Below, in pieces: positions 7,086 to 46,141 of a stretch of DNA of 57,160 nt (the first letter of the stretch is position 1; each line of letters begins with the position of its first letter). The stretch is from an uncultured archaeon (GTDB taxonomy: Archaea; Aenigmatarchaeota; Aenigmatarchaeia; CG10238-14; EX4484-224). The DNA lies in assembly GCA_964524025.1 (NCBI GenBank), contig CAZGBT010000001.1, positions 1-57,160 of the forward strand. The letters are read 5' to 3'. The position numbers and the translations under genes were made by a program. Below the pieces are notes generated by a model that searched no databases, was not told where the DNA came from, and saw only the letters and a program-made list of their open reading frames with translations.

Positions 7086-7745
7086 ATGCTAGAGAAGTTC
7101 GCTACCATAACTTCTCTAGCTCTAGTAGATGCCATAAATCCTTGTACTTTGGCTGTTCAAGTTTTGTTACTCTCAAGTCTTTTAGCTTCTAGAGGCAGAA
7201 AATCTGTATTAATAGGAGGGATCCTTTTTTCCTTAACAATTTATGCAATGTACGCTCTCTATGGTTTAGGAATATTAGCAGCTATATATGCAGCTAATGT
7301 TCAATCTTTTTTGAAAATAATTTTAAAGGCTCTCTTGATTTTCTTAGCTTCTTTAGAAATTATTGCATTCTTTAGATATAGACCTGGTTTAGTTTCTGTT
7401 GAAATGCCAAAAGCATTTAGACCTTTCGCTAAAAGTTTGCTTCTTTCTGTTCAATCTCCTTTAATGACAATTCCTGTAGCTGCTCTATGTTCAGTTTTAT
7501 TGTTGCCTTGTTCCTCTGGTCCTTATGCAGTCGCTTTAATGATAGTTGCAAATTGGCAAGCTATTTTGAGGATTTTAACCATAGCCTATTACAACTTACT
7601 ATTTATAATTCCTATGATAGCTATAACTCTTATAGTTTACTTTGGAACCAAACCAAAGAAAATTTTGGAATGGAGAGAAAAACACATTAGGGAAATTCAT
7701 CTAATCTCTGGCTTACTTCTCTTATTAGTTTTCTTCCTAACTTAA
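7086..7745 (+). CDS. CcdA/DsbD-like thiol:disulfide transmembrane electron transporter
   Basis: Polytopic membrane protein with the two conserved Cys contexts of the DsbD_2 family (DAINPCTLAV in TM1; LLPCSSGPY in a later TM). Confidence 0.6.
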   Translation: MLEKFATITSLALVDAINPCTLAVQVLLLSSLLASRGRKSVLIGGILFSLTIYAMYALYGLGILAAIYAANVQSFLKIILKALLIFLASLEIIAFFRYRPGLVSVEMPKAFRPFAKSLLLSVQSPLMTIPVAALCSVLLLPCSSGPYAVALMIVANWQAILRILTIAYYNLLFIIPMIAITLIVYFGTKPKKILEWREKHIREIHLISGLLLLLVFFLT

Positions 7746-9760: not shown

Positions 9761-10915
9761 TTAATTTCTATTTCTATATTTTATTTCGACTAACCTTTCT
9801 ACACCGAGTGCAAAACCTGTGGCTGGCACGTCCTTCTCAATCCCATATCTTCTTAAGAAGTTACCGATTAGACCATCATACCTCCCTCCTCCACCAACTT
9901 CTGGGTATGTTTTTTCGCAACCTATAATGTCAAACTGGACTACGAGTGAGGTATAGTACTCCCATCCTCTTATCATGGCGGGATCGAAAATGCAGCCTAC
10001 GCCACGCTTTTTCAATTCCTGAAGAAATTCTTTTAACATCTCTAGATTAATTCCTACAACTTCCTCTATCATTTTGATTTCACCAATGCCTCCTGTTAGG
10101 GAATAAACGCATCTCCAAGCTTCTTTCATCTTATTAGGCAAATTTTTAATCTTCCGCTCGATTTTTTGTTGGAGGTCTTCTATATTCATTCTCATTACTC
10201 TTAATTTGGATAATTTGTCGAGGTATTCCTTCATCCTACCCCTTTCCTCTAAGGTGTAGTAGCTATTTTTGCACAATGTTTTAAAGATATTAACATCACT
10301 TACCCTAAGAGAGACTTTGCCTGGAAAGAGTTTAGAGAGCAGCGTGTAGCCAAGAAAGAAAACCTCTATGTCAGCATCTAGGCTTGGATTACCAACGTAC
10401 TCTATCCCTATCTGAGTAAATTCTCTTCGCTTTGTTGGACTTAGCTTGCTTATATCCTCGTTTCTAAAGCAAGTGATAATATAGTATACTTTTAAAGGCA
10501 AGAATACCGAAGGACTAACTCCTTTTGCAATTAGTTTGGCGATAAACCTGCAAAGAGATGCTGTACCTTCAGGTCTTAGAACGCATAGATACGACTTAAT
10601 AGGTTTTTCGTATTCAAAGTCTGTAACGCGCACCAGGAAAAAGTCCCTCTTGACTCTTCTGATTGGTTCCTCTGGTCTCACTTCTCTTTCTGTCCATGGT
10701 ACTGTAAGTAAGTCGCTTGAAAGAGCTTCTGTGAATGTTTCAATCCTCTCTAAGGTTGGTGGTATGTATTCCTGGTATTCGTAAGTTTCAAAAAGCTCTC
10801 TTGCTAGTTTTTCTATTTCTCGCTGTATTCTTACTTTTTCTCCTATTCTATCGTCAAATCCTAGAGGCGGTGATAGCTTTGTAAGAAGTATATCTCTCAT
10901 AATCTCACCTGGCAA
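9761..10915 (-). CDS. histidyl-tRNA synthetase-like class II paralog (HisZ-like; no anticodon-binding domain)
   Basis: Class II motif 2-like (CFRNEDISKLSPTKRREFTQIGIEYVG) and HisRS motif 3 (GGGGRYDGLIGNF...PATGFALGVERL). At 384 aa it ends right after the catalytic core. Confidence 0.65.
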   Translation of the reverse strand: MPGEIMRDILLTKLSPPLGFDDRIGEKVRIQREIEKLARELFETYEYQEYIPPTLERIETFTEALSSDLLTVPWTEREVRPEEPIRRVKRDFFLVRVTDFEYEKPIKSYLCVLRPEGTASLCRFIAKLIAKGVSPSVFLPLKVYYIITCFRNEDISKLSPTKRREFTQIGIEYVGNPSLDADIEVFFLGYTLLSKLFPGKVSLRVSDVNIFKTLCKNSYYTLEERGRMKEYLDKLSKLRVMRMNIEDLQQKIERKIKNLPNKMKEAWRCVYSLTGGIGEIKMIEEVVGINLEMLKEFLQELKKRGVGCIFDPAMIRGWEYYTSLVVQFDIIGCEKTYPEVGGGGRYDGLIGNFLRRYGIEKDVPATGFALGVERLVEIKYRNRN

Positions 10916-11376: not shown

Positions 11377-12681
11377 ATGAAGTTTGATACTTCTCCAGTA
11401 AAAGGAACTAGAGATTTTTTACCAGAAGAAATGATCTTAAGACAGAAAATAATAGAGAAAATAAAAAACATTTTTGAAATTTTTGGTTTTTCACCCCTTG
11501 AAACTCCTGCTTTAGAAAAATGGGAAATTTTAGCTGCAAAAGGTGCAGGAGGAAGCGAAGTACTTAAAGAAACTTATAGGTTTAAGGATAAAGGCGGAAG
11601 AGATATAGGTTTGAGATACGATCTAACAGTTCCTTTAGCAAGAGTTATAGCTAATAACCCAAATTTACAACTTCCTTTTAAAAGATACCAAATACAAAAG
11701 GTTTGGAGGTACGGAGATGTAAAAAGAGGAAGGCTTAGAGAATTTTTACAATGCGACATAGATATAGTAGGAACAGAAAATTTAGTTGCTGACGCAGAAG
11801 TTATTGCTTGCGCTGTTAAAGTTTTGGAAGAACTAGGATTTAAAAACTTTTTTGTGAGGCTAAATAGCAGAAAGCTTTTAACTGCTTTAGTAATTTATGC
11901 AGGTATTTCTAAAGAAAAAGCGCTGGAAGTTTTCAGAAGTATAGATAAGTTAGATAAAATAGGATTAGATGGCGTAAAAGAGGAATTAAAGGAAAAAGGT
12001 TTTAGCAAACAGCAAATTTCTAAAATAGAAGAATTTTTGAAAATTTCTGGAGAACCTTTTGAAATCCTAAAGCAAGCAGAGAAGCTAGTAGGTGAAATAG
12101 AAGAAGGAAAAAGTGGTATAAAAGAGTTAAGAGAATTAGTTGAATATTTAAAGGAATTTGGAGTATACGATAAAATAAGGCTTGATTTGAGTTTGGCAAG
12201 AGGTTTGGATTATTATACAGGCCCTATTTTCGAAATATGGTGTGAAGAAAGAGGAATAGGAAGTTTAGCCGGCGGCGGTAGGTATGATGAACTAATAGGA
12301 TTGTTTGCTGGAAGGAAAGTACCAGCTACCGGAATAAGCTTGGGAATAGAAAGGATACTAGAAATTCTTAAGGAGAGAACCAAAAAAATTGAAAAAACTA
12401 AAGTTAAAGTTTTTGTCGCAGCAGCTACTGACGATGTGAAAAAAGATGTTTTTAAAATCGTCAAGATGTTGAGGGAAAATGGGATAAAAACAGATTTTGA
12501 CCTAAAAGGAAGGAAACTCAAAAGGCAACTTGAATATGCAGATTCCTTGCAAATTCCGTTTGTTGTTATAGTAGGAAAAGAAGAGTTAAAAGAGGATTGC
12601 GTTAGGTTAAGGGATATGAGAAAAAGGGAAGAAAGGAAAGTTAAAATAAATGAACTAATTCAAACTTTAACAAAATCCTAA
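11377..12681 (+). CDS. hisS: histidyl-tRNA synthetase
   Basis: N-terminal GTRDFLPEEM, motif 2 (RYGDVKRGRLREFLQCDIDIVG), motif 3 (GGGRYDELIGLF...PATGISLGIERI) and a C-terminal anticodon-binding domain. Confidence 0.9.
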   Translation: MKFDTSPVKGTRDFLPEEMILRQKIIEKIKNIFEIFGFSPLETPALEKWEILAAKGAGGSEVLKETYRFKDKGGRDIGLRYDLTVPLARVIANNPNLQLPFKRYQIQKVWRYGDVKRGRLREFLQCDIDIVGTENLVADAEVIACAVKVLEELGFKNFFVRLNSRKLLTALVIYAGISKEKALEVFRSIDKLDKIGLDGVKEELKEKGFSKQQISKIEEFLKISGEPFEILKQAEKLVGEIEEGKSGIKELRELVEYLKEFGVYDKIRLDLSLARGLDYYTGPIFEIWCEERGIGSLAGGGRYDELIGLFAGRKVPATGISLGIERILEILKERTKKIEKTKVKVFVAAATDDVKKDVFKIVKMLRENGIKTDFDLKGRKLKRQLEYADSLQIPFVVIVGKEELKEDCVRLRDMRKREERKVKINELIQTLTKS

Positions 12682-12966
12682 TTTTTCTCTTGCTTTTTTA
12701 CTCAACCTTTCAGGACTCCAAGGAGGATCGAAAGTTATTTCAACTTCAGTTGGTATTTTGAGTTTTTCTTCTACATTTCTTCTAACATCCTCTACTATTA
12801 AGCTAGCCATCGGACAGAAGGGTGAGGTTAAAGTCATTTTTATTCTAATTTTCTTCTCTCCAATGTTAATCTCATAAATTAATCCTAAGTCTACAACGCT
12901 TAAATTGAGTTCTGGGTCTTTAACTTTTTCCAAAATTTTGAGTACTTCTTCTTTGCTAACTTTCAT
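12667..12966 (-). CDS. DUF59/MIP18-family Fe-S assembly protein (SufT-like)
   Basis: Motif (KVKDPELNLSVVDLGLIYEINI...TLTSPFCPMA). Overlaps the upstream SufBD-like gene stop, which suggests an operon. Confidence 0.8.
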   Translation of the reverse strand: MKVSKEEVLKILEKVKDPELNLSVVDLGLIYEINIGEKKIRIKMTLTSPFCPMASLIVEDVRRNVEEKLKIPTEVEITFDPPWSPERLSKKAREKLGFC

Positions 12967-13868
12967 ATTCTCAGAAAACCTCTAACCAGTAAATCTATAG
13001 CCTTTTTCTTACTAAAACCTCTACTTCTCAAGTAATCTAACTGTTCTTCTTCTATTCTTCCTATAGAAGCTTCATGCGTTAACAAGGCATTTTTGCTTAA
13101 GTTTAGCAATTCGGGAATTAAAGATATGGTAGATTTCCTTCCAACAATTAATCCTTTGCAATCGATATGACCTCTTGAATTTTCTTTCCCTATTATTTTG
13201 CTTCTTGCTATTATTCTTGAGTTCTCTCTACCAACAACTCTTATTTTCAAACTTCCTTTTGAATTTTTTTCTAAAAGTTCGATTTCCTCCTTTGTAGAAA
13301 CCTTGCAGTTTTTGCAATCTATAAAAATTTTCAAATCTACTTTTGAGTTTTCTTTTACGATAACCCTTTTATGAAGGTTTAAGTTTAAAGGAGAGGAAAA
13401 GCATTTGTAAGTATAATCTAAATTTGCGTTTTTTGCCAAGATAAACTCATAAAATGGCTTTACTCTATCGGAAAAACCCCATTTATGGAAATGAACGTAT
13501 CTTACTGAAGAGCCTTCTTTAATTATGAATTTTCCCTTTACGTTATGCGTAATTCCGATAGATTTTTTCTTTACTAAGCAATATCCAAAAAAATTTACCT
13601 TTAAGTTCTTTTCTACTATAACTAAGTTCTGCAAATTTTGTTTTAAAGGAGAACAAAGGAATATGCAAGTTGATAAGGGAATGTTAACTTGCTTTTTTGC
13701 CCAAATAAAATAGCCTTCCTTTGGTTTCTTATCATAAAACCTTCTAACCCATTTGAATTTTTCCCAAGCTTCTTTGCTTTTTAAAATCTCAACTCCTTCA
13801 ACTTTTCTAATGCTAACTTCTTTATCAACCTGAAAATAATTTGCATTTCTTACATTTCTCGTAGCCAT
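12963..13868 (-). CDS. SufB/SufD-family Fe-S cluster assembly scaffold protein
   Basis: C-terminal signature (LLTHEASIGRIEEEQLDYLRSRGFSKKKAIDLLVRGF). It lies between SufC and the DUF59 gene. Confidence 0.75.
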   Translation of the reverse strand: MATRNVRNANYFQVDKEVSIRKVEGVEILKSKEAWEKFKWVRRFYDKKPKEGYFIWAKKQVNIPLSTCIFLCSPLKQNLQNLVIVEKNLKVNFFGYCLVKKKSIGITHNVKGKFIIKEGSSVRYVHFHKWGFSDRVKPFYEFILAKNANLDYTYKCFSSPLNLNLHKRVIVKENSKVDLKIFIDCKNCKVSTKEEIELLEKNSKGSLKIRVVGRENSRIIARSKIIGKENSRGHIDCKGLIVGRKSTISLIPELLNLSKNALLTHEASIGRIEEEQLDYLRSRGFSKKKAIDLLVRGFLRI

Positions 13869-14523
13869 ATTTTTTGATAACCATCCAAACTTTCTTCCAA
13901 TTTTTAGAAGAACAAACTATACTTCCGTTTAGCATTACATGAACGTAATCTGGATTTAATAACTTCAGAATTGAGCAATAATGCGTGATTAAAAGAATTG
14001 AATTTTGTTTATTTTTCCAATTTTTGATTAATTTTACTATTAATTTCAATTTTTCAACATCAATTCCAGAGTCTATTTCGTCAAGCATCAGAAATTTCGG
14101 ATTTAAAGCTAAAACTTGTATTAATTCAGAAATCTTTTTTTCACCACCGGAGAATTTAAGGTTTAATTCTCTTTCTAGGATATTGCCTAGAATTCCAAGT
14201 TTTACTTTAAAATTTGGGTTTATTCTTTCTAAAATGTCTTTAAGGGTTATGCCTTTAATAACTGGAGGGTTTTGAAAGGCTAGTGCAATCCCTAGTTTAC
14301 ATCTCTTCTCTGGAGCAAGTTTTCTTAGATCAATATCGTTAAACAAAATTTTTCCCTTTATCCTGTAATTTCCTATCCCCATTATTACTTTAGCAAGAGT
14401 TGTTTTACCACAAGCATTTGGTCCTATTAATGCATGAATTTCTCCTTCCTTTATCTCTAGTCTTATACCCTTTAGTATAATTTTTCCATTTACCTCAACC
14501 TTATCTAACTCTACTTTCAGCAT
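13825..14523 (-). CDS. sufC: Fe-S cluster assembly ATPase SufC
   Basis: Walker A (GPNACGKTT), ABC signature (FSGGEKK), Walker B (LMLDEIDSGID) and the H-loop ITH. The track ORF starts at 14568. I prefer the internal ATG at 14523 (MLKVELDKVEV...), which reduces overlap with the upstream regulator gene. Confidence 0.8.
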   Translation of the reverse strand: MLKVELDKVEVNGKIILKGIRLEIKEGEIHALIGPNACGKTTLAKVIMGIGNYRIKGKILFNDIDLRKLAPEKRCKLGIALAFQNPPVIKGITLKDILERINPNFKVKLGILGNILERELNLKFSGGEKKISELIQVLALNPKFLMLDEIDSGIDVEKLKLIVKLIKNWKNKQNSILLITHYCSILKLLNPDYVHVMLNGSIVCSSKNWKKVWMVIKKYGYEKCKKCKLFSG

Positions 14524-14824
14524 ACTTTCCCAGTTTCTTCCTAATTTTTTCACAAAGCATGCAAACATTTTTTTGGAATTCTTGTTCGGAGAGGTCTGAA
14601 AAGGTTAATCTTATAGAAAATTCCTCTAACTCCTTTTTTGCTATTTCCATTATTTTCTGAACTAGCTTCCCCCTTTTTTTTGCGACGTATTGAGAAACAG
14701 CTGGCTGGGTTATCCTTAATTTTCTTGAAATATCTGTTTGAGTGAAACCTTTTTCGAGCAATCTTTTAGCTACATAAGATCTAATTGCTGGTAATATGTA
14801 TTTGGATACAAACTCACACTTCAT
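14501..14824 (-). CDS. small HTH transcriptional regulator (XRE-like; heads the suf operon)
   Basis: HTH segment (FTQTDISRKLRITQPAVSQYVAKKRG) and a C-terminal CxxC (CMLC). Its start codon abuts the 15-bp palindrome at 14824-14838. Confidence 0.7.
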   Translation of the reverse strand: MKCEFVSKYILPAIRSYVAKRLLEKGFTQTDISRKLRITQPAVSQYVAKKRGKLVQKIMEIAKKELEEFSIRLTFSDLSEQEFQKNVCMLCEKIRKKLGKYAESRVR

Positions 14825-14838
14825 ATAACAGTGTTATA
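14824..14838. promoter_or_regulatory. palindrome TATAACAGTGTTATA (member of the TATAAC-N3-GTTATA family)
   Basis: Perfect 15-bp palindrome read from the sequence. It overlaps the regulator start codon by 1 nt and lies 36 nt upstream of the ATG at 14875. Confidence 0.55.
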
Positions 14839-14874
14839 CAAATTAAAATAAAAATTTAACATTTTTTTAATCAA

Positions 14875-15186
14875 ATGAGTGTAACTTTAAGAAGGAAGAT
14901 TACAGTAGTAATAGAAGCGCTGGGTTACAGCAGAGCAGATGCTCTCTTAAGAGCTCGTAAAAAAGCCGCTACAATGTTCATTGAGTATGTGGAATTGGGT
15001 TATTCAATAACGTACGAAGGGAAGATCAGTGGAATTGAAACCAAAGATGGTAGAGTAATCTTTCCAAATTTGGATGAGTACGAAACCCCGCTTATTATTC
15101 CAGAATTTTTACCTATAGGAAGGCTTACAAGGGATATATATAGGGCGAGATTAAGAGTGAGAGGAACAATAGAGGAAAAAATCTAG
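14875..15186 (+). CDS. hypothetical protein (103 aa)
   Basis: Clean ORF with a promoter-like palindrome 36 nt upstream. No family recognised. Confidence 0.45.
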   Translation: MSVTLRRKITVVIEALGYSRADALLRARKKAATMFIEYVELGYSITYEGKISGIETKDGRVIFPNLDEYETPLIIPEFLPIGRLTRDIYRARLRVRGTIEEKI

Positions 15187-18817: not shown

Positions 18818-21800
18818 ATGGTAAAGTTGGAAAGCGAAATAGAAGAATACAAGATTGAGATAAAGACTTGGATAAAAAAAATTAGGAAGAGAGACGGAAG
18901 AATAGTAGATTTTGACCCATCGAGAATAGCTAATGCAATTTGGAAGGCTGCAAAAGCAGTTGGCGGTAAAGATAAGAGAAGACCTTGGGAACTTGCAAAA
19001 CAAGTTGTTGAGTTATTGGAAAAAAAGCTGAAACCTGGTGAAATACCGAGTGTTGAGCAAGTTCAAGATCTAGTAGAAAAGGTTTTGGTCGAAAATGGTC
19101 ATTATAAAACTGCTAAAGCTTATATACTTTACAGACAAAAAAGGGCCGAGGCAAGGAAAGCTTGCGCAATTTTAGGCGTAAAAGACGACTTAAAACTTCC
19201 TTTAAATACTATAGTTATTTTAGCAGCTCGCTATTTGCTAAGGGATGAAAATAGGAATATAATAGAAACACCAAGTCAGCTTTTTAGAAGAGTTGCTAGA
19301 GCAATAGCTGAAGTAGAAAAACGATATGGTAAATCTGACGAATACGTTAAAGAATTGGAAGAGAAGTTTTACGAATTAATGACCTCTTTTAAGTTCCTCC
19401 CCAATTCTCCTACTCTTATGAACGCAGGAACTGGTAAGAATTTAACTTTAAGTGCATGTTTTGTTATTCCGATAGAAGACGATATGGAAAGTATTTTTGA
19501 AGCGTTAAAAACGATGGCTCTAGTACAGAAGGCAGGTGGTGGATGCATAGATGGGAAAGCAAAAATAGTTTTTGAAAACGATTCTGAATTTCATGTTTTA
19601 TCGCTAGAAGATTTTTATCAAAAATACAAAGGAAATGAGTTTTACGATGCAAAATATGATAGGTATGGTATTGACGTTAGGAATAAAAATATTTATGTTT
19701 ACTCCTTTGACCCTAAAAGGAAAAGAGTTGTTAAAGGTAAAGTGCAATTCATCTGGAAGTATATATTAGGCGAGAACGTTAAAAAGTTTTCAATCATAAC
19801 TAAGAAGGGAACTAGAATAATAACATCGCCTTGGCATCCATTTTTTGTTTTAACACCAAACTTTGAGATAATTCAAAAAAGAGCTGATGAGCTACAGAAA
19901 AACGATATGATCATAGGCTCCTTACCGATAGAAGAAATAGGTTTTAATTTCGATTATTGGCTTTTAGGTTTTATAACTGGAGATGGTTGTATAGGCAAGT
20001 ACAAGAATAAAAATTACGAGACTTGTAGGATAAGAATTTACGATAATGTAAAAGAAACTTTAGAAAAGATAAATGCGCATTTGGAAAGGAAATTTGGGAA
20101 GAAGTATGCAATTCAGAAAGATAGGAATATATTCTACATAGATATTAAAACACCAAAAGTTACTTCTTACTATTTAAAGTTGAAAAAGAAGGTTTTCAAG
20201 AATAAAATCTCAGCCCTTTCATTCATCGCTGGTTTATTTGATGCAGAAGGTTACGTTGGGAAGAAACCTTCTCTTCAACTTTCAACTGTCAAAAAAAGTT
20301 TGATGGAGAAAATAGCCTATTTGTTAAATTCTTTAGGAATAAAGGCTAGAATAAGGGAGAAGAAAAGAAAGGACGGAAAAGATTATGTAATACATATAGA
20401 AGAATACAGTGCAATCTTAAGGTTTTATGAACTAATAGGGAAACATTTGCAAAGAGAAGATAAGAAAAAGAAGTTAGTTTCAATACTAAGAAAAAGCAAG
20501 GGAGGATCTTTCGGTTTGCCTTTAAATTTTGAGGAATTTAAAAAGATAATGTCAAGATTTGGTGTTAGTTTTAAAACTAATGGCAACCAAACTTTAGCTA
20601 TTTTTAAGAACAAAAAGCTGTCGCTAGGTCAATGGCATAAAAGAGGGGTTGTTGCAAAATCTACTCTAGTAAGATTTTTAAAAGAAATAGAAGGGAATGT
20701 AATGGAAATTAAAAATTTGAGAAAGCTTATAGAATCTGTTGAAACTGTTAAGTCGATTTCTGCTAATACTGCTAAAGCAATCTTTTATGATTTGACGGTT
20801 AAAGACTACCAAAATTATTTAGCAGGAGATGGTGGTTTGGTTTTTATCCATAATACTGGATTTGATTTTTCGAAATTAAGACCTAGAGGAGATGTTGTAA
20901 AATCTACAGGAGGCATAGCTTCGGGACCAATTTCTTTTATGAAAATTTTCGATGCAGCAACTGAACAAATAAAACAAGGCGGAAAGCGTCGTGGAGCTAA
21001 CATGGGAATTTTAAGAGTAGATCATCCAGACATTCTTGATTTTATAGTTTGTAAGGAAAGAGAAGGAGAATTGAGGAATTTCAACATCTCGGTTGCTGTT
21101 ACAGACGATTTCATGAGGGCGGTCGAAAGAGACGAAGAAATAGACCTTATAAACCCAAGAACCAAAAAGCCAGTTAAAAGGATAAAAGCCAGAGTTATTT
21201 GGAATTTAATGGCAACTATGGCTTGGAAGAATGGAGAACCAGGAATTATATTTATAGATACAATAAACAAATACAATCCAACTCCGCATGTTGGAAGAAT
21301 CGAAGCAACTAACCCATGTGGAGAACAACCTCTTTTACCCTATGAAAGCTGCAATTTGGGTTCAATCAATCTTTCGAAATTCGTCGAAGACGGTAAGATA
21401 AAGTGGGAAGAATTAAGAGAAACTGTTAGGTTAGCTGTTAGGTTTTTGGATAACGTGATAGATGCAAATTCCTATCCAATACCAGAAATAGAAAAAGCAA
21501 CAAAGGCTAACAGAAAAATTGGTTTGGGTGTTATGGGATTTGCAGATATGCTAATTAAACTTGGAATTCCTTACAACTCAGAGAAAGCCTTAGAAATTGC
21601 AGAAAAGGTTATGAAATTTATAAGCGAGGAAGCGAGAAAGATGAGTGTTGAATTAGGGAAGGAGAAAGGAAACTTCCCAAACTTTAAAGGGAGCACCTGG
21701 GAGAAGAAAGGTTATAAGTATATGAGAAATGCTACAGTAACAACTATAGCTCCAACTGGTACTATAAGCGAAATAGCCGGTTGTTCTCAAGGTATAGAGC

Positions 21801-22267
21801 CTTTATTTGCTATTGCTTACGTTAGAAATGTAAAGGAAAGTTTGGGTTACGATTTGACTGTTATAAATCCTTTATTTGAAATGATAGCTATTCAAAGGGG
21901 TTTCTATTCAGACGAACTTATAAAAAAGATAGCAAGGAGTACTTCTATTCAGCATATAAAAGAAATACCAGAAGATGTTAGAAGGATTTTTGTTACAGCT
22001 TTAGACATAGCACCAGAATGGCATGTTAGGATGCAAGCAGCATTTCAGAAATATACAGATAATGCAGTAAGCAAAACTGTTAATTTACCTTATGACGCAA
22101 CACCAGAGGATGTTGAAAGGATATTTATGCTTGCCTGGAAACTTGGTTGTAAAGGGATTACTGTTTATAGGTTTGGCAGCAGAAAAGTGCAAGTTATAAA
22201 GACGCTTGCAGAAGGAGGCCCTATTACTCCTGAAAGTTTTTCGAGGTGTCCAAGCTGTGAGTTATGA
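18818..22267 (+). CDS. nrdJ: adenosylcobalamin-dependent (class II) ribonucleotide reductase with N-terminal ATP-cone, interrupted by an intein
   Basis: ATP-cone ([23 protein letters not shown]). Motifs [17 protein letters not shown]|...|[13 protein letters not shown]...[16 protein letters not shown]...[10 protein letters not shown]-terminal Cys pair (CPSCEL). Confidence 0.8.
19544..20854 (+). mobile_element. intein (437 aa) with LAGLIDADG homing-endonuclease domain inside nrdJ
   Basis: It starts with Cys (CIDGKAKIV) right after the extein KAGGG and ends VFIHN, followed by +1 Thr ([10 protein letters not shown]). It has two LAGLIDADG motifs ([11 protein letters not shown]; [12 protein letters not shown]) and a block-B-like TSPWHPFF. 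Removing it restores the conserved GGGTGFDFS extein motif. Confidence 0.85.
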
Positions 22268-37856: not shown

Positions 37857-38074
37857 TAAATTTTTTGAAGTATTAAATTTTTTACTTTTTTAGGATCTAC
37901 TTTGCCCTCGCACTCTTTTGCAACCTCTCTAATTAATTTAGTTAAAGAACTTCTTATTCCAGCTTTGTATTCTAAAATTAATTTCGAATGTTTTGCTAAA
38001 ACTTTTTCAACAATTTCATTTAACTCTACAGGTTCTTCTTCGAATTTTAAAATAATTCTTTTCTTTTTACCCAT
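37856..38074 (-). CDS. small GatB/YqeY-domain-like protein
   Basis: The C-terminal part (VLAKHSKLILEYKAGIRSSLTKLIREVAKECEGKVDPKKVKNLILQKI) resembles the GatB/YqeY tail domain. The start was chosen at the ATG at 38074 (MGKKKR). Its stop codon overlaps the 5' base of tRNA-Arg. Confidence 0.45.
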   Translation of the reverse strand: MGKKKRIILKFEEEPVELNEIVEKVLAKHSKLILEYKAGIRSSLTKLIREVAKECEGKVDPKKVKNLILQKI

Positions 38075-38747
38075 AAACTTCACTTCCAACCTTTTCTCCT
38101 TTTAGCACTTTTTCTAATTCATTAGGGTTACTTCCTATAAAAATAAGTTTTATTTTACTTCTTTTGGCTATTCTTAAAGCTGACAGATCGAACAATTCAT
38201 AAGTTCCAGGTTCAGCTTTTTGGCTTTTAATTAACTCAAAAAATTCATCGTAGCTTAATTTATCGATTTTCTTTGCATCATCAAACTTTTTAGGATCTTT
38301 ATCGTAAATACCGCTTACATCGCTTATGTTAATAACTACTTTACAACCTATTGCTTCAGCAAATAATACTGAATTAAAATCTGTCGAACAGCCAGGCTGA
38401 TTACCGCAGCCTATGAAAAATGAATAGGATTGGTCAAAAGATTTAAGCAATTCGTTAACAGTCGAAATAGGCTCTGGATAACAGTTTTTAAGCGAAGAAA
38501 TCAATAATCTAGCGTTTAACCTTGTAGCTTCAATTCCTATTTTGTCTAAATCGTTTTTGTTTTGGGTAAAATTGGAGGCTAATTTAATATACTCCCTTGC
38601 AACTTTTCCGCCTCCAGTTATTATAACAAACCTAAAACCTTTTTCTGCAAAACTATCTAAAATTTCAACGTACTTCTTTAATTTTTCTGGTGATTGTAGG
38701 AATTCGTTGATTACGCTACCGCCAAGAGATATTACGAATGTTTTCAT
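38067..38747 (-). CDS. pyrH: UMP kinase (archaeal PyrH)
   Basis: Amino-acid-kinase fold motifs (FVISLGGSVI, VIITGGGKVAREY, DVSGIYDKDPKK). Confidence 0.85.
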   Translation of the reverse strand: MKTFVISLGGSVINEFLQSPEKLKKYVEILDSFAEKGFRFVIITGGGKVAREYIKLASNFTQNKNDLDKIGIEATRLNARLLISSLKNCYPEPISTVNELLKSFDQSYSFFIGCGNQPGCSTDFNSVLFAEAIGCKVVINISDVSGIYDKDPKKFDDAKKIDKLSYDEFFELIKSQKAEPGTYELFDLSALRIAKRSKIKLIFIGSNPNELEKVLKGEKVGSEVYG

Positions 38748-38782: not shown

Positions 38783-38797
38783 TATAACGGCGTTATA
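38783..38797. promoter_or_regulatory. palindrome TATAACGGCGTTATA (TATAAC-N3-GTTATA family), compact bidirectional promoter candidate
   Basis: It lies 35 nt from the pyrH start (38747, minus) and 34 nt from the trxA start (38832, plus). It has the same half-sites as the sites at 14824, 42954, 45240 and 47599. Confidence 0.5.
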
Positions 38798-38831: not shown

Positions 38832-39161
38832 ATGGCAGAAGAAATTTCAGAAAAAGATTTTAAGGAAAAGGTGTTGGAAAGGAGTAAGAAAATACCTGTA
38901 ATAGTTGACTTTTGGGCACCTTGGTGTATGCCATGTGTCTTCTTAGCTCCTATTTTAGAAAATGCTGTAAAAGAGTTTAAGAATAAGGTTGTTCTCGTTA
39001 AAGTAAACGTTCAGGAAAATCCAAGGTTAGCGATGAAATACGGTATTATGTCTATTCCTAATGTTAAGATGTTTAGAAACGGAAAAGTAGTTGATGAATT
39101 TATAGGGTTACAATCTGAGGATTTTATAAAGAATTGGATAAGGAAGAATTTAAAAAGCTAA
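38832..39161 (+). CDS. trxA: thioredoxin
   Basis: Active site (DFWAPWCMPC), cis-Pro (SIPNVKMF), 109 aa. Confidence 0.9.
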   Translation: MAEEISEKDFKEKVLERSKKIPVIVDFWAPWCMPCVFLAPILENAVKEFKNKVVLVKVNVQENPRLAMKYGIMSIPNVKMFRNGKVVDEFIGLQSEDFIKNWIRKNLKS

Positions 39162-40644: not shown

Positions 40645-40744
40645 GCCGGGGTAGTTCAGCGGCAGAACGCCGGACTCATATCCAATGAGTTGCGATAGAT
40701 GAGCGAGATATCCGGAGACGGGGGTTCGAATCCCTCCCCCGGCA
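40645..40744 (+). tRNA. tRNA-Met/Ile2 (anticodon CAU, elongator-type) with a 29-nt intron at the canonical 37/38 position
   Basis: Acceptor GCCGGGG/CCCCGGC+A, D arm GTTC-AGCGGCA-GAAC. The anticodon stem CCGGA...TCCGG is restored only if 40681-40709 is removed, giving the loop CTCATAA. T arm GGGGG-TTCGAAT-CCCTC. The G1:C72 pair argues against an initiator. Confidence 0.85.
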
Positions 40745-41031: not shown

Positions 41032-41152
41032 GGAGAGGCCGTCTCCGCTGAGAGGCGACCTCTCCGGGGAAGGGAGGTGTGGTTTTCACACCTCCCCCCA
41101 CCCCCGGCCTTAGAAAGGAAGTTGGGGGTGCAACGCACCCCCCGCCGCGGGG
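41032..41152 (+). other. array of GC-rich stem-loops forming the 5' flank/leader of the GC-rich ORF
   Basis: Hairpin A at 41032-41065 (GGAGAGG...CCTCTCC, about 13 bp, imperfect). Hairpin B at 41072-41096 (GGGAGGTGTG-gtttt-CACACCTCCC, 10 bp, perfect). Hairpin C at 41124-41142 (GGGGGTGC-aac-GCACCCCC). An overlapping hairpin D at 41139-41152 (CCCCG-ccg-CGGGG). Confidence 0.5.
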
Positions 41153-41181
41153 TCTGGGAAGGCAGGGAGAAATAGGAAGCC

Positions 41182-42909
41182 ATGTGGTGGAACTGGTGGA
41201 TAGGTGGGGTCTCCTGGGGGGTCTACGCGTTCCTCTTTACGTACTTACTGTGGCGAGATGAATGGACCGGAAGACGAAGACCGAAGAGGAGTCTCCTTGT
41301 TGGACTCCTCTTCGTCGGCGTGGGAGCAGGTGTAGGTCTGGCAGCTGCAAGAGTCCCATTGCACCTCTTCGTCATCAACGCTGTGGTACTTCCGCCAATT
41401 GTCATACTCGCTGTACTGGCTATAATAGCTGCGGTGGGCTGGTTGGGTGAACGCGGCCATGAGATGCTATCCATCGTACTGGTATCCCTCCTGATTGCCT
41501 CATCCATCCTTGGAGGATGGCTTCTTATGCGAAACATCAGATACGCCAATGCAGAGGAGTTCAAGGGGTATATCCGCTACGAGCAAGGCACGGTCGACAT
41601 CTTCCCAGAGATAGACCCTTCGCAGCTTAGGCTGACCACGGCTGAGATAGCAAAAAGCATAGCTGAGATGAAGAAGACGAGTGCTGCCAGCAAGGTATTA
41701 AGCGTCCACCTAGGTATCTACGAAGGCGAGTTGTGCTGGATAGCGACACTAAGCGAAAAACCCTATCTAGGTATGCTGATAGGGAAGTCCAACAGAGTAC
41801 GTGAGATTGTAGTAGTGCCCGTCAACGACTGCACCGGCGAGGAAGCCTTCACAGTTCCGCTGTCCACAGGGGTTGGGGAGAATCTATGGTTCGACCGGGA
41901 TATGCTTGTCTATGCTCAGTACAACTATCCATACCGTACGTTCACACGTGCATACCTAACATGGTCGCCAGAATACGACACTCTCGTCTGGATAACAACT
42001 AGCTACTATGAAAAGCCGTATGGGCCCCTCGTGGATCCAAGAGTAGAGGTATGGTCGCTCGATGGACGACTGTTAGCTCAGTACACACCGTGGGAGGCCC
42101 CTGGATGGGTTGTACAGCGTTGGGACGAGCGATGGCTCGAGAGCGTAGGAGACTCCTTTGGCGACTTCCGATGGGATGAACAAAACAACTTGAACTTCTG
42201 GAATGGCATACCTCGACCATCTGACAGATCGGCCGACCCTGACGAAGAAATGAGGTACCAACGGTGGTCTGGGGAGATAGTAGGAGTCCTTCTCTTCCAC
42301 AACAAACTAAATCCAAGTCTGCTCGAGTTCGTCGTCATAGCGCATCGAAACGGCATATACCTCTACAGCCTACACAACCTAGCTCTAATAACACCTACAG
42401 AGGCGAAGAAGGTGGCGCTTGCCGGCCTTCCTGCGTTGCCAAAGGGACGTGAGTACGCAACACCGTTAGCCCTCCTCTACCGAATAGGGAGCCACCTGTA
42501 TTATCACATCCCGGTGTTCGTTAAGGAAGGAGAACGTTACTTACCAGCATACTTCGTGCTCGTGAGAGCCACTGATAGGCGGTGCATACGGATAAGCTGC
42601 GCGGAGGTAGGAGGAATGAGGGAGGCTGTGTTAGCTGCCTACCAGGAGGTGGGCAGGATACCTAAAGTCCCGGAAGAGCGTAAGGTGACTGGTATACTAA
42701 CGCGGAAGTTGGTTTACACCAAGGAGGGCAACAGCCGGATATGGCTAGAGCTCCGGATAGGAAACGAAACGGAGTGGTTCCTGGCCAAAGCTGAAGTACT
42801 CGACGACGAGGACGTCCGCGACCTGCTCCTCGCCGAGCCTGGATGGGAGCTGGTGCTACTAGTCTCACCAGACAACGAAGTTCTCGACGTCTTGGAAGCC
42901 CATCCGTAA
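41182..42909 (+). CDS. hypothetical membrane protein (575 aa; 4 N-terminal TM helices plus a large W/Y-rich soluble domain), compositionally foreign
   Basis: It is the longest ORF in the ~60% GC island, and the other ORFs there are nested or antisense. N-terminus MWWNWWIGGVSWGVYAFLF, followed by three more hydrophobic helices. No family recognised. The C-terminal LYYHIPVFVKEGERYLPAYFVLV...REAVLAAY is only faintly reminiscent of UPF0182/COG1615. Confidence 0.6.
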   Translation: MWWNWWIGGVSWGVYAFLFTYLLWRDEWTGRRRPKRSLLVGLLFVGVGAGVGLAAARVPLHLFVINAVVLPPIVILAVLAIIAAVGWLGERGHEMLSIVLVSLLIASSILGGWLLMRNIRYANAEEFKGYIRYEQGTVDIFPEIDPSQLRLTTAEIAKSIAEMKKTSAASKVLSVHLGIYEGELCWIATLSEKPYLGMLIGKSNRVREIVVVPVNDCTGEEAFTVPLSTGVGENLWFDRDMLVYAQYNYPYRTFTRAYLTWSPEYDTLVWITTSYYEKPYGPLVDPRVEVWSLDGRLLAQYTPWEAPGWVVQRWDERWLESVGDSFGDFRWDEQNNLNFWNGIPRPSDRSADPDEEMRYQRWSGEIVGVLLFHNKLNPSLLEFVVIAHRNGIYLYSLHNLALITPTEAKKVALAGLPALPKGREYATPLALLYRIGSHLYYHIPVFVKEGERYLPAYFVLVRATDRRCIRISCAEVGGMREAVLAAYQEVGRIPKVPEERKVTGILTRKLVYTKEGNSRIWLELRIGNETEWFLAKAEVLDDEDVRDLLLAEPGWELVLLVSPDNEVLDVLEAHP

Positions 42910-42952: not shown

Positions 42953-42969
42953 TTATAACACTGTTATAA
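42953..42969. promoter_or_regulatory. palindrome TTATAACACTGTTATAA (TATAAC-N3-GTTATA family)
   Basis: Perfect 17-bp palindrome. Its 15-bp core ends 39 nt upstream of the deoxyhypusine synthase ATG (43008). It lies about 20 bp after the right edge of the GC island. Confidence 0.5.
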
Positions 42970-43007
42970 ATTTTTAAATCGAATATAACATCCTTAATAA
43001 AAATTTA

Positions 43008-43928
43008 ATGAAAACTGTAAAGGATTTTGAGTTGGAAAAAATAGAAACCTTCTCTCAACTTTTGCAACAAATGAAAGATTCGGCTGGCTTTAACGCAAAA
43101 TTTTTGGCAGAAGCTTTTGAAATTTTAAAGGAAATGCTAAGAGATGGTAAATGCTTGAAATTTCTTTCCTTTCCTGCTTGCATAATAGCTACTGGAACTA
43201 GAGGAATAATAAGAGATTTTGTTAAGAAAAAGTGGTTCGATGTGGTTATAACAACTTGCGGAACTTTAGACCATGATTTGGCGAGGAGTTTTAAACCCTA
43301 TTATCATGGAACTTTTTTTGCTGACGATTTTGAGTTAGCTGAAAAAGGAGTTCATAGACTTGGTAATATCTTCGTTCCAAAAGAAAGTTACGGTATTATA
43401 ATAGAGAAAAAAATGAAAGAATTTTTACCAGAAATTTGGAGGGAAAAGAAAGAATTGGCAACTTATGAGCTTTGCTGGGAATTAGGCAAAAGGATAAATA
43501 ATGAAAACTCAATTCTTTACTGGGCCTATAAGAATAAAATACCGATCATAGTGCCTGGAATTACAGACGGTGCAGTTGGCTATCAAATCTGGGAGTTTAG
43601 CCAGGACCACGATTTTAAGATTAACGTTTTGAAGGATGAACAACTCTTAAGCGATTTAATTTGGAATGCAGAAAGAAGTGGAGCTTTAATTTTGGGTGGT
43701 GGAATCTCAAAACATCATGTAATTTGGTGGAATCAATTTAAAAAAGGTTTGGATTATGCAGTTTATATAACGACAGCAACCGAATGGGACGGAAGCTTAA
43801 GCGGAGCAAGACCTAGGGAAGCTGTAAGTTGGGGGAAGATAAAGAAAAAAGCTAGATTCACTTTTGTTATATGCGATGTTACAATTGCATTACCAATTCT
43901 TTATAAAGGTTTGCTAGAAGTTATTTGA
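43008..43928 (+). CDS. dys: deoxyhypusine synthase
   Basis: Motifs FLSFPACIIATGTRGIIRDFVKKKWFDVVITTCGTLDHDL, ILGGGISKHHV and EAVSWGKI. Confidence 0.85.
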   Translation: MKTVKDFELEKIETFSQLLQQMKDSAGFNAKFLAEAFEILKEMLRDGKCLKFLSFPACIIATGTRGIIRDFVKKKWFDVVITTCGTLDHDLARSFKPYYHGTFFADDFELAEKGVHRLGNIFVPKESYGIIIEKKMKEFLPEIWREKKELATYELCWELGKRINNENSILYWAYKNKIPIIVPGITDGAVGYQIWEFSQDHDFKINVLKDEQLLSDLIWNAERSGALILGGGISKHHVIWWNQFKKGLDYAVYITTATEWDGSLSGARPREAVSWGKIKKKARFTFVICDVTIALPILYKGLLEVI

Positions 43929-44451: not shown

Positions 44452-44496
44452 AAAACAAAATTTATAAACAAAAGTTTATAACTCTTTTGTTAAATA

Positions 44497-45231
44497 ATGC
44501 TTAAATTGCCTTTCAATCCTATAGAAAGGGCAAAAAAAGTTGAAAAAGTTGTTTGTAGGAATAATTCAAGAAAATATTATCGCTTTAGGTTTTCTAGGTA
44601 TTATGGAGGCATAGTTACTGCAGACGCTGTAGGTTGTTGCTTTTTATGCGCTTATTGCTGGAATTATTTTAGGAATTTGAATCCAGAAAAATATGGAAAG
44701 TTCTATTCAAGCAAGGAAGTTGCTAACATTTTAGAAAAAATTGCGTTAAAGAAAAATTGCTTTAGAATAAGGATTAGCGGCGCAGAACCAATCCTTGGAG
44801 AAAAAAGTTTTAATCATTTTATTAAAATTTTAAAAATTTTGAAAGAAAGATTGAACCCAGAATTTATTTTGGAAACTAATGGTTTAGTTTTGGGTTATTA
44901 TCCAAAATTTTGTAAGAAACTGGCTGAGTTTAAAGATAATTTATTCGTAAGAATTTCTGTAAAGGGCTGGGATGAGAGAAGTTTCGAAAAAGTTACTGGA
45001 GCTAAAGGCGAATTTTTTAAATTCCCTCTAATAGCTTTAAAGAATTTAAGAGAGTTAGGTGTAAATGCATGGCCTGCTGTTATGTACGAAATTTTTAAAG
45101 GGAAAGGATTGGAGGAAATTCATAAAAGAATGAAAGAAATGGGCATAGAAATCGAAGAATTGGAGTTAGAGTATCTTGAGTTGTACCCTTTTGTAAAGAA
45201 GAATTTGAAGAAAAGAGGGTTGCTACTTTGA
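44497..45231 (+). CDS. radical SAM domain protein (function unknown)
   Basis: CX3CX2C cluster motif (GCCFLCAYCWNYF) and an SAM-binding glycine-rich segment (RISGAEPIL). Confidence 0.65.
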   Translation: MLKLPFNPIERAKKVEKVVCRNNSRKYYRFRFSRYYGGIVTADAVGCCFLCAYCWNYFRNLNPEKYGKFYSSKEVANILEKIALKKNCFRIRISGAEPILGEKSFNHFIKILKILKERLNPEFILETNGLVLGYYPKFCKKLAEFKDNLFVRISVKGWDERSFEKVTGAKGEFFKFPLIALKNLRELGVNAWPAVMYEIFKGKGLEEIHKRMKEMGIEIEELELEYLELYPFVKKNLKKRGLLL

Positions 45232-45238
45232 TTTTTAA

Positions 45239-45255
45239 TTATAACACTGTTATAA
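45239..45255. repeat. palindrome TTATAACACTGTTATAA (19 bp if flanking A/T are included), between convergent genes
   Basis: It is identical to the 17-mers at 42953 and 47598. It occupies most of the 24-bp gap between the stop of 44497..45231 (+) and the stop of 45256..45591 (-). Confidence 0.5.
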
Positions 45256-45591
45256 TCAAATTTCCTTTACTTCGCCTTTTTCGACTATAACTAAAGGCCT
45301 TGACTCAACCAAAGCTCTTGTTATTTTCTTTCTGGCATTTTCCAGTAATCTCCATAAAGTTCCTCTAGAGGTATTCATCCTTTTTGCAGCCTCTTCTTGC
45401 TTCAAGTTTTCAAGATCGACAAGCCTTAAGGCTTCTAATTCTGGATAGCTTAATTCAATGGGGTTTGGGTTTAAGCAAGGATTAGGTATAAATTCCTTTA
45501 CTTTTGGTAAATGATAGAGGATTAAAGGGGAAAAAGGCCTTCCTGGGCCAAACCTACGCATACACCATCTCCATCTCCTTCTCCACCTCAC
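45256..45591 (-). CDS. DUF134 (UPF0251) family DNA-binding protein
   Basis: Family core (ELEALRLVDLENLKQEEAAKRMNTSRGTLWRLLENARKKITRALVE). The N-terminus is R/W-rich (MRWRRRWRWCMRRFGPGRP). Confidence 0.75.
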   Translation of the reverse strand: MRWRRRWRWCMRRFGPGRPFSPLILYHLPKVKEFIPNPCLNPNPIELSYPELEALRLVDLENLKQEEAAKRMNTSRGTLWRLLENARKKITRALVESRPLVIVEKGEVKEI

Positions 45592-45673
45592 AATTTTTAT
45601 TTTAACTTGAAAAAATTAATTGCAATCGCACAAAATTATATTTTCCATTAGCGAAATCTTTAAATATTTGCAT

Positions 45674-45695
45674 ATGCACAAAAAATTTTGTGCAT
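45674..45695. promoter_or_regulatory. inverted repeat ATGCACAAAA-aa-TTTTGTGCAT (candidate operator), with an extra GCACAAAA half-site at 45628-45635
   Basis: Read from the sequence. It lies in the divergent intergenic region between the DUF134 gene (start 45591, minus) and the DUF5320-like gene (ATG 45716, plus). It overlaps the palindrome TGCATATGCA (45669-45678). Confidence 0.4.
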
Positions 45696-45715
45696 ACGCT
45701 AAAAAAGGTGAGAAT

Positions 45716-46120
45716 ATGCCATGGGGATGGGGTTGGGGAAGAGGTTGGAGATGGGGATTTTGGCTAACAGGAATGCCAGGATGGATGAGATGGACTTACT
45801 TTAGCTATAATTATCCAGTAACAGCCTATCCATGGTTCTGGAGATGCAGATGGTTTCCATGGCTGCCAAGATGGTGGTGGACAGGAATGTATGGGCCAGT
45901 AGTCTGGACACCGCAAGGGCCTTTCCTTCAATCTCAATTAACTTTTCAGCCTCAGCAATCTTTTCAACCCTTTTTCCAGCCTTCACCTCAAGATGAGTTG
46001 AGTTACTTAGAAAATGAGCTAAAAATGCTTGAGGAAGAGAGAAAAGCAATAGAAAAAGAAATAGAAAGCATAAAGAAGAGAATAGAAGAATTAAAGCAAA
46101 AGACTAGCTTTAATATCTAG
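45716..46120 (+). CDS. DUF5320-like protein with extremely Trp-rich N-terminal region and C-terminal coiled coil
   Basis: The ATG at 45716 is preceded by GGTGA. MPWGWGWGRGWRWGFWLTGMPGWMRW...PWFWRCRWFPWLPRWWWTGMYGPVVW has 16 Trp in about 66 residues. A Q/P/F-rich linker and the coiled coil ELSYLENELKMLEEERKAIEKEIESIKKRIEELKQK follow. The position after a DUF134 gene and before a NifX-like gene matches the usual DUF5320 context. Confidence 0.6.
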   Translation: MPWGWGWGRGWRWGFWLTGMPGWMRWTYFSYNYPVTAYPWFWRCRWFPWLPRWWWTGMYGPVVWTPQGPFLQSQLTFQPQQSFQPFFQPSPQDELSYLENELKMLEEERKAIEKEIESIKKRIEELKQKTSFNI

Positions 46121-46141
46121 GAAATCAAATTGAGTATCAAC

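Follow-up and report, generated by a model that had tools for sequence, protein, structure and literature searches.

A recurrent palindrome as the likely operator of a conserved archaeal XRE-type helix-turn-helix family, with one copy heading a SUF-like operon

Why does a perfect palindrome recur in one stretch of archaeal DNA, and which protein recognizes it? The stretch considered here (the window) is the whole of a 57,160-bp sequence from an uncultured archaeon; its GC content is 33%, its matching contigs come from hydrothermal-vent metagenomes, and its genes are typically archaeal (eIF2-alpha, Nop10, tRNA-splicing endonuclease, rpoK/rpoN, deoxyhypusine synthase). The element in question is TATAAC-N3-GTTATA, and one of its copies touches the gene of a small XRE-type helix-turn-helix (HTH) protein that stands first in an operon serving the assembly of iron-sulfur (Fe-S) clusters. 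We consider it likely that the palindrome, with the consensus TATAAC-N3/4-GTTATA, is the operator of a conserved archaeal XRE-type HTH family; the member of the family found in the window heads the sms operon.

Five palindromic sites and the genes beside them

An exact search finds TATAAC-N3-GTTATA five times in the window and nowhere else in it, at the same positions (14824, 38783, 42954, 45240 and 47599) that a sequence-only reading had listed. The sites are as follows.

14824 to 14838: candidate operator 1, TATAACAGTGTTATA; at -14 to +1 of the start of the HTH-smsCB operon (minus strand) and at -51 to -37 of a divergent 103-residue gene (plus strand)
38783 to 38797: candidate operator 2, TATAACGGCGTTATA; in the middle of the divergent pyrH/thioredoxin gap, 35 nt from the pyrH ATG (38747, minus strand) and 34 nt from the thioredoxin (trx) ATG
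42953 to 42969: candidate operator 3, 17 bp with core 42954 to 42968; 39 nt 5' of the dys ATG, with the TATA-like ATTTTTAAAT (42970 to 42979) directly after it
45238 to 45256: operator-like site 4, 19 bp with core 45240 to 45254; an orphan flanked by the stop codons of two convergent genes, radical-SAM and DUF134
47596 to 47616: candidate operator 5, 21 bp with core 47599 to 47613; 36 nt 5' of the ATG of an operon of a GDPD-like gene, an NTPase gene and two MinD-Fer4 ATPase genes

Around them lie these genes and one promoter element.

14501 to 14824, minus strand: 107-residue XRE-type HTH regulator, the candidate binder; first gene of the sms (suf-like) operon
13825 to 14568, minus strand: smsC/sufC, ABC-type ATPase of the Fe-S assembly scaffold (PF00005 on an identical metagenome contig)
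12963 to 13868, minus strand: smsB/sufBD-type scaffold subunit, 301 residues (PF01458, SUFBD_core)
12667 to 12966, minus strand: FeS_assembly_P gene (DUF59/SufT-like), final gene of the operon (PF01883)
14843 to 14859: TATA-like, AT-rich element AAAATAAAAATTTAA midway across the intergenic region of 50 bp
14875 to 15186, plus strand: 103-residue protein divergent from the HTH gene, with no match in Pfam, NCBIfam or PDB
38067 to 38747, minus strand: pyrH-like gene of the amino-acid kinase family (UMP kinase, PF00696), putative target of operator 2
38832 to 39161, plus strand: thioredoxin (PF00085, E = 1.4e-27), putative target of operator 2
43008 to 43928, plus strand: deoxyhypusine synthase, dys (PF01916, E = 6.5e-110), putative target of operator 3
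44497 to 45231, plus strand: radical SAM ([4Fe-4S]) enzyme (PF04055), ending 9 nt short of the core of site 4
45256 to 45591, minus strand: DUF134 putative DNA-binding protein (PF02001), its stop codon starting 2 nt past the core of site 4
47650 to 50511, plus strand: putative target operon of operator 5, with the GDPD-like gene first (47650 to 48297), then NTPase_I-T (48297 to 48851) and two CbiA/MinD-type ATPases with 4Fe-4S ferredoxin domains (48842 to 49663 and 49660 to 50511)

The HTH, smsC, smsB and DUF59 genes form a minimal SUF-like (SMS) operon. The stretch from 45256 to 50511, which includes the last of these operons, is a conserved-looking cluster of poorly understood metal and Fe-S genes: DUF134, DUF5320, NifX/NifB-like (Nitro_FeMo-Co), a metallo-beta-lactamase fold, GDPD-like, NTPase_I-T and the two MinD/CbiA-ferredoxin ATPases.

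Four of the five sites are one and the same 15-mer, on either strand, TATAACA-C/G-TGTTATA, a perfect 7-1-7 palindrome; the fifth reads TATAACG-G-CGTTATA and is just as symmetrical. Three copies had been described as extendable to 17-19 bp, which holds for two of them (17 and 19 bp), and the third reaches 21 bp. The possibility that the motif falls at random, coding regions included, at the frequency set by base composition was checked in the window: all five copies lie in its 9.2% non-coding part (coding fraction 0.908), and dinucleotide shuffles yield a mean of 0.01 sites and never reach five. The half-site alone occurs at chance level (TGTTATA 15 times against 13.7 expected, TATAACA 10 against 12.2). 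When up to two mismatches are allowed, only seven further matches appear in the window against about 4.5 expected, so the perfect copies have no halo of degenerate ones, and no other type of recurrent palindrome is present in the window. A further 9.4 kb of the organism's sequence upstream of the window adds no copy. Five perfect sites in a combined length of about 66 kb is denser than a local regulator would lead one to expect, and the regulator may therefore have a broader role in this small genome. Strain-level variation in four vent metagenomes came as fragmentary contigs with too few differences to footprint the palindromes.

The position of the sites relative to genes is likewise regular. 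At 14824 the site opens with a T that is complementary to the A in the ATG of the HTH gene, and the gaps from palindrome to the plus-strand ATGs at 14875, 38832, 43008 and 47650 are 36, 34, 39 and 36 nt, within the range of 34-39 nt given by the sequence-only reading. That reading had missed that site 38783 also serves a minus-strand ATG, that of pyrH, and that site 45240 lies between convergent stop codons. The latter lies in a gap of 24 nt where two convergent genes meet with their stop codons, and so does not stand at any obvious promoter. A ATTAAAAAT box comes after it on the minus strand, and a function as an antisense promoter or a roadblock is conceivable.

Could the palindrome instead be a dispersed repeat, such as the end of a mobile element, a recombination site or a hairpin terminator? 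Four identical copies would fit such an origin, as would the copy between convergent genes, where terminators sit. Against this, the similarity ends at 15-21 bp with unrelated flanks, the spacing to the ATG is fixed at 34-39 nt, an AT-rich stem with a loop of 1-3 nt would, judged from its sequence, make a very weak RNA, and the site is kept at homologous promoters across phyla. We regard this explanation as scarcely credible.

The regulator family and the palindrome in other archaea

What protein would read these sites? The 107-residue protein matches PF01381 (HTH_3) marginally, at 23.8 bits against a cutoff of 23, over residues 20-63; many of its homologues have precomputed PF01381 matches. 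NCBIfam holds no specific match to it. Its family comprises 306 proteins by profile search, and 1,373 clusters at 50% identity by exhaustive hidden Markov model search at E <= 1e-10. The members are 105-130 residues long and mainly archaeal, with few bacterial representatives. In the family alignments the LPAIR motif and the second HTH helix (TQPAVSQY..RG, with the recognition helix TQPAVSQY) are invariant, and the invariant residues Pro12, Arg15, Gln29, Pro41, Ala42, Ser44, Tyr46 and Arg51 are all present in the window protein. Cys3, Glu4, Cys88 and Cys91 are near-invariant and are also kept in it; most members carry two to four further cysteines toward the C-terminus. The AlphaFold2 model (pLDDT 88.9) predicts an all-helical fold of seven helices with the HTH helices at residues 29-36 and 40-48. 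In PDB no structure resembles the whole protein, and a sequence search gives generic HTH matches alone; the best Foldseek match of the model is the XRE-type controller protein C.Esp1396I, which is weak (E = 0.5, TM score about 0.3). Beyond the generic HTH, nothing in Pfam, NCBIfam or PDB resembles the family.

An initial search with the protein returned three relatives, each with a version of the palindrome upstream of its gene. For example, the first (P0002, locus L120), 43% identical to the window protein and from a genome of 52% GC, carries TGTTAT..TTGTTATATAACAA..TATAAC-GATA-GTTATA; nadA follows it, metY and metX are divergent, and cysteine desulfurase and NifU genes are near. Similarly, the second (P0003, locus L128) has TATAACAACGATATA and then TTTTAAAT. 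The third (P0004, loci L123-L126) is a divergent member without Cys3 and Cys88 and with TAPAVSQY where the family has TQPAVSQY. About 10-25 nt upstream of its ATG stands TTAAC-GA-GTTAA, in which the TAAC/GTTA core is kept, the spacer is shorter and the outer bases differ; protein and site may co-vary here.

We then compared 80 metagenome loci (464 kb), chosen only by the conserved HTH peptide, with 80 archaeal control loci (1.04 Mb) anchored on deoxyhypusine synthase (DHS). The DHS proteins of the control loci are at most 73% identical to that of the window, and the best matches are mostly, though not all, labelled Ca. Aenigmatarchaeota. The search covered species-representative genomes, and its outcome makes a poorly sampled, DPANN-like archaeon the probable source of the window. 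The HTH-anchored loci hold 82 sites, 7 with an N3 and 75 with an N4 spacer, and none with N2 or N5; half-sites in the inverted order occur twice. The control loci hold one site, of the N4 type and within a coding region, and none with an N3, N2 or N5 spacer or with the half-sites inverted. Upstream palindromes are present in 42 of the 49 HTH-anchored loci that have at least 2.8 kb of upstream DNA, and the palindromes of these loci are located at the promoter of the operon that contains the HTH gene, or of that gene itself. The pairing recurs in at least 20 distinct lineages whose GC contents run from 25 to 55%. These results show a real motif that is not random and that occurs together with the HTH family across archaea.

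The neighbourhoods differ from locus to locus. The window's own order, HTH-sufC-sufBD, returns in two loci (L258 and L273). Four independent look-ups added three cases: in L292, iscS-iscU is divergent from the HTH gene and TATAACGGTGTTATA lies 33 nt from its ATG; metY-metX-metW is divergent from HTH-nadA in L290, with the site TATAACAATTGTTATA, and a Bathyarchaeia locus (L289) combines HTH-nadA with TATAACATCGTTATA. About 50 loci of Methanobacteriales type have one or more sites followed by cysK, cysE and the HTH gene; here the sites stand 40-110 nt upstream of cysK, in many cases as a tandem of two or three, and the operon often continues with cysS. One of these proteins (L264) is that of Methanobrevibacter smithii, where the annotation is merely 'transcriptional regulator'. 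Across archaea the family is linked to smsCB, iscSU, cysK-cysE, metY-metX, nadA (a [4Fe-4S] enzyme), fdhD and cysteine desulfurases. As the HTH gene is the sole constant while neighbours such as smsCB, iscSU, cysKE, metYX and nadA vary, the loci bear the signature of an autoregulated factor and its operator. The invariance of the recognition helix fits that of the half-site.

A side observation concerns paralogues. A paralogue of 119 residues, 33% identical to the window protein, is encoded at 11440-11799 (minus strand) of L120, 1.1 kb away from the main copy and directly beside a gene for cysteine desulfurase, and at 7355-7714 (minus strand) of L290, where the adjoining genes have no Pfam match on record. 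Some archaea thus hold two family members in one sulfur or Fe-S neighbourhood.

On this comparative evidence we think it very probable that the HTH protein binds the palindrome. The sequence-only reading had argued for a dimeric DNA-binding protein, had named the adjacent XRE-like HTH protein as its candidate and had asked that motif and regulator be followed together in related genomes; comparative genomics lends strong support to the first two proposals, since loci selected by the HTH peptide carry the same palindrome at the HTH or operon promoter, and supplies the third. Might the binder instead be another protein, such as the HTH product of the DUF134 gene or a regulator whose gene lies beyond the window, with the XRE-HTH gene as just one co-regulated member of its regulon? 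Site 45240 does touch the DUF134 gene, the 7-1-7 architecture recalls the boxes of the Fur family (PerR, Fur, Zur), which are 7-1-7 inverted repeats, and co-occurrence alone cannot prove the identity of a binder. These points are outweighed in our estimate by the choice of loci on HTH homology alone, by the persistence of the palindrome beside that one gene as its neighbours change, and by the invariance of recognition helix and half-site alike, which make a different binder improbable. DUF134 was rejected as a candidate: blastp finds no homologue in 81 HTH-anchored loci, and site 45240 adjoins the 3' end of the DUF134 gene, away from its promoter. No Fur-family gene was seen among the open reading frames scanned, about 62 of the about 70 in the window; across genomes the motif tracks the XRE-HTH gene.

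Promoter layout, mode of action and signal

How are the sites placed relative to the core promoter? Window genes with an upstream gap mostly have a TTTAAA-like box at about -31 to -23 of the ATG and no Shine-Dalgarno sequence, so their mRNAs are mostly leaderless. Against this typical position, the palindrome, of which the window has only five copies, lies at -54 to -35. Upstream of the 103-residue gene, of trx, pyrH and dys, and of the GDPD operon the palindrome has its near end at -40 to -35, directly against a separate TATA-like element (such as GATTAAAC or ATTTTTAAAT), and so occupies the position of the TFB recognition element (BRE). At the HTH-smsCB promoter it lies downstream of an AT-rich box at about -35 to -19. 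The element AAAATAAAAATTTAA of this intergenic region stands at about 27 nt from the ATG of the HTH gene and at about 24-26 nt from that at 14875, and because -31 to -23 is the typical TATA position in the window we infer that it is a shared or overlapping TATA region of two divergent leaderless promoters. An alignment of five window promoters with six homologous HTH promoters gives a common layout: the palindrome, a TTTAAA/TTTATATA box within 0-6 nt, and about 22-25 nt to the ATG.

The sequence-only reading had proposed that the GTTATAA(A) half of the palindrome probably serves as the TATA box as well. In the window, where most sites have a separate TTTAAA-like element between palindrome and ATG, that half would be at or just upstream of the BRE and is probably not the TATA box. 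The proposal does apparently apply elsewhere: in a locus of 55% GC (L229) the distal half-site appears to form the TATA box, and in M. smithii it apparently overlaps or forms it, the final half-site of the operator array reading TTATATTA. In gut metatranscriptomes of M. smithii, contigs of high depth begin at L264:2170, 20 nt past the operator array, and span cysK and cysE into the HTH gene at a depth 10-50x that of flanking genes, although contig ends and depths are rough guides; these contigs suggest a cysK start near L264:2170. Separately, we note that in four such metatranscriptomes the high-depth cysK-cysE-HTH contigs end near 4163 (within L264 3970-4220), inside the HTH gene (L264 3989-4372), and that depth falls sharply past that point, 4- to 100-fold depending on the run; a site of processing or of termination is conceivable there, and so is an artefact of assembly.

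The distal half-sites of L229 and M. smithii are among the points that would favour a different explanation, namely that the palindrome is a core-promoter feature, a back-to-back TATA/BRE pair for bidirectional promoters, with no dedicated regulator. TTATA(A) looks like a TATA box, two of the five palindromes lie in divergent intergenic regions, and the window has another palindromic TATA pair at 44461-44482. This explanation is nevertheless very improbable in our judgement. About 40 other promoters of the window have no palindrome and use the TTTAAA-like box, which lies about 10 nt nearer the ATG than the half-site does; perfect symmetry is kept even at the three sites that have a single gene to serve or none at all; and the hexamers and the N3/N4 spacing are kept across genomes from 25% to 55% GC, only beside the HTH family. 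The pair at 44461-44482 is an observation in its own right. It reads TTTATAAAC-AAAA-GTTTATAAC and lies within the 45 bp that separate rpoN from the divergent radical-SAM gene; each of the two boxes keeps the canonical spacing to whichever gene is on its far side, and the sequence is distinct from the operator motif.

We propose the following mechanism for the HTH protein. A dimer would occupy both half-sites, as the perfect dyad symmetry and the lack of enrichment of the half-site alone suggest. Bound at -14 to +1, between the TATA box and the leaderless start, the dimer would block recruitment of RNA polymerase and so repress both its own gene and Fe-S assembly; a position between TATA box and start is classical for archaeal repressors that act in this way. 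We hold repression at the sms promoter to be reasonably probable, and the idea that the site at the head of the suf operon is an autoregulatory operator, put forward from the sequence, is strongly supported by the same pairing in relatives. At the promoters of the 103-residue gene, trx, pyrH, dys and the GDPD-MinD/Fer4 operon the protein would compete with TFB/TBP, most likely to repress, with activation possible. In each case it would act on the pre-initiation complex, and occlusion of BRE/TATA is favoured over recruitment of TFB/TBP.

The same binder could alternatively have a dual function like that of SurR, repressing where its site lies between TATA box and start and activating, through recruitment of TFB/TBP, where the site is just upstream of BRE/TATA. 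The HTH-smsCB operon and iscS in L292 would then be repressed, and trx, dys, the GDPD operon and the 103-residue gene activated, as would the HTH gene itself in L213, L243, L258 and L292. The archaeal activators Ptr2, TFB-RF1 and SurR bind just upstream of the TATA box, and at four or five window promoters the site ends directly before a separate TATA-like box; moreover, in the window and in L292 one site lies between two divergent genes at unequal distances. Set against these features, the site directly adjoins BRE/TATA or shares 0-3 nt with it, and the footprint of a dimer usually exceeds the core, which favours occlusion, and the site arrays of the Methanobacteriales overlap the TATA box or the start, as is typical of repression. 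We consider dual function rather unlikely.

What would the HTH protein sense? Because its homologues sit with smsCB, iscSU, cysKE, metYX or nadA and its cysteines are conserved, the signal is most likely Fe-S cluster or reduced-sulfur status, which would make the protein a functional analogue of SufR, IscR/NsrR and CymR. That the sensing proceeds through the cysteines of the protein itself is a suggestion to which we give slightly less than even chances. The predicted regulon in the window comprises the protein's own gene with the Fe-S assembly operon and, as putative further members, the 103-residue protein, thioredoxin, pyrH, dys and the operon with two MinD/NBP35-type Fe-S ATPases. The sequence-only reading had proposed suf, trxA/pyrH, dys and a GDPD-like gene; the theme of the regulon is Fe-S clusters and the metabolism of cysteine or sulfur, and the GDPD-like gene turns out to head the operon of the two MinD/ferredoxin ATPases.

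Several observations weigh against this interpretation. Both dys and pyrH fall outside the sulfur and Fe-S theme. Seven of the 49 well-covered loci, and L291 in addition, have no exact site. The 80 loci of the closest sampled DHS relatives, which serve as a negative control rather than as a test of conservation, contain no ATAAC-N3-GTTAT, and their dys upstream regions are unrelated. No open reading frame of at least 20 residues begins beside site 45240, which is without a recognizable promoter. The position -51 to -37 is also a classical one for archaeal activators. Finally, the window protein has three cysteines only, without the additional C-terminal cysteine pairs of most members, so cluster binding is less certain in this organism.

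Taking all this together, we tentatively put forward a broader hypothesis. The family may be a sensor-regulator of ancient origin, spread throughout the archaea, whose Cys3, Cys88 and Cys91 report Fe-S cluster or sulfide status, possibly by an inter-subunit cluster; it would have co-evolved with the minimal SMS and MIS systems and with cysteine and homocysteine synthesis. One operator would then serve from DPANN-like archaea to Bathyarchaeia and gut methanogens, and in the reduced genome of the window's organism the protein would have taken on a wider role, possibly with dual function, in which thioredoxin, hypusination and nucleotide metabolism also come under its control.

Several further features of the window were noted. 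Between 40900 and 42950, just downstream of a tRNA gene, the GC content rises to 43%; GC-rich hairpins at about 41040-41170 precede an open reading frame (41182-42909, plus strand) for 575 residues, which has transmembrane helices at its N-terminus and matches nothing in Pfam or NCBIfam, and the stretch may be a horizontally acquired island. A structured RNA in this 40.9-42.9 kb region, beside site 42954, was considered and rejected, as there is no Rfam match and the reading frame gives a plausible membrane protein. The tRNA gene itself (40645-40744, plus strand) is 100 nt long, scores 63 bits with Rfam, was missed by ARAGORN and presumably contains an intron. At 18818-22267 (plus strand) the large subunit of ribonucleotide reductase is split by an intein with a LAGLIDADG homing endonuclease (domains: intein splicing, PI-PfuI endonuclease, Stirrup), and a protein of 292 residues encoded at 52530-53408 (minus strand) joins a LAGLIDADG_2 endonuclease domain to an HTH_3 domain at the C-terminus. 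Pairs of HEPN and minimal nucleotidyltransferase genes, toxin-antitoxin-like, occur twice in about 66 kb (54832-55514, plus strand, and L293 7039-7774). Two divergent histidyl-tRNA-synthetase-like genes stand 461 bp apart (9761-10915, minus strand, and 11377-12681, plus strand), the first of which may be a HisZ-like paralogue.

Relation to known regulators

An autoregulated Fe-S or sulfur regulator with a palindromic operator is a kind of system already known; the protein family is undescribed. The nearest functional parallel is SufR, whose operator is CAAC-N6-GTTG. The operator described here differs from it, and in other archaea the HTH family is also linked to cysKE, metYX, iscSU and nadA. 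SufR of cyanobacteria and actinobacteria (for example M. tuberculosis Rv1460, PMC6034842) and the window protein have in common a small size, a gene that heads the suf operon or diverges from it, a palindromic operator at their own promoter and autorepression, which we predict for the window protein. SufR reports Fe-S status through cysteine ligands, which is known for SufR and inferred for the window protein. The two have no sequence relationship: SufR has about 215-240 residues, a winged HTH and a C-terminal four-cysteine domain, whereas the window protein is a 107-residue XRE-type protein with Cys3, Cys88 and Cys91, and no SufR or DeoR/ArsR-type family scores above cutoff for it in Pfam or NCBIfam. 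Similarly, the Rrf2 regulators IscR and CymR are dimeric, are encoded with their target operons, and tie Fe-S biogenesis, in the case of IscR, or the metabolism of cysteine, in that of CymR, to the status of clusters or sulfur, with a cluster held by three cysteines and one other ligand. Fold, family and operator differ, the window family being archaeal with few bacterial members, and the window HTH protein has no match to Rrf2 (PF02082) at E <= 0.01.

SurR of the Thermococcales is likewise archaeal and sulfur-responsive, has a CxxC motif, binds a short palindrome of GTT/AAC triplets spaced by three, and represses or activates according to the position of its site relative to BRE/TATA. It differs in being an ArsR-type winged-helix protein (for the window protein HTH_5 reaches 16.3 bits, under the cutoff of 22) and in its motif, GTT-N3-AAC, which has the reverse order of TATAAC-N3-GTTATA and shorter half-sites. 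Moreover, the CxxC of the window protein (88-91) lies in a C-terminal helix, whereas that of SurR is N-terminal and in the DNA-binding domain, and the targets of SurR are hydrogenase and S0-reduction genes. Finally, C proteins of the XRE type, C.Esp1396I for one, are small dimers with an all-helical HTH fold, and the short palindromes to which they bind overlap the promoters of their own genes. The structural match is weak and limited to the HTH core, the long N-terminal helix and the cysteine-bearing C-terminal helices have no counterpart, and the biology of C proteins is the control of restriction-modification.

In our judgement, operators conserved across archaeal phyla appear to be rare. 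Full-text searches of the literature outside subscription-only sources gave no named regulator for the HTH family and no mention of the TATAAC-N3/4-GTTATA motif, and we found there no transcriptional regulator for archaeal SMS/SmsCB, MIS/IscSU or archaeal cysteine biosynthesis; the recent primary papers and the 2026 review on Fe-S systems that were searched list bacterial sensors alone (IscR, SufR, NsrR, RirA, FNR). What is new beside the systems compared above is the specific protein family (about 1,400 clusters at 50% identity), an operator nearly invariant across phyla, and the predicted regulon. The operator can be used to annotate regulons in thousands of archaeal metagenome-assembled genomes, and control of Fe-S and sulfur homeostasis in archaea becomes directly testable, including in the cultured M. 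smithii, whose cysK-cysE-HTH operon carries the operator and is expressed in gut metatranscriptomes.

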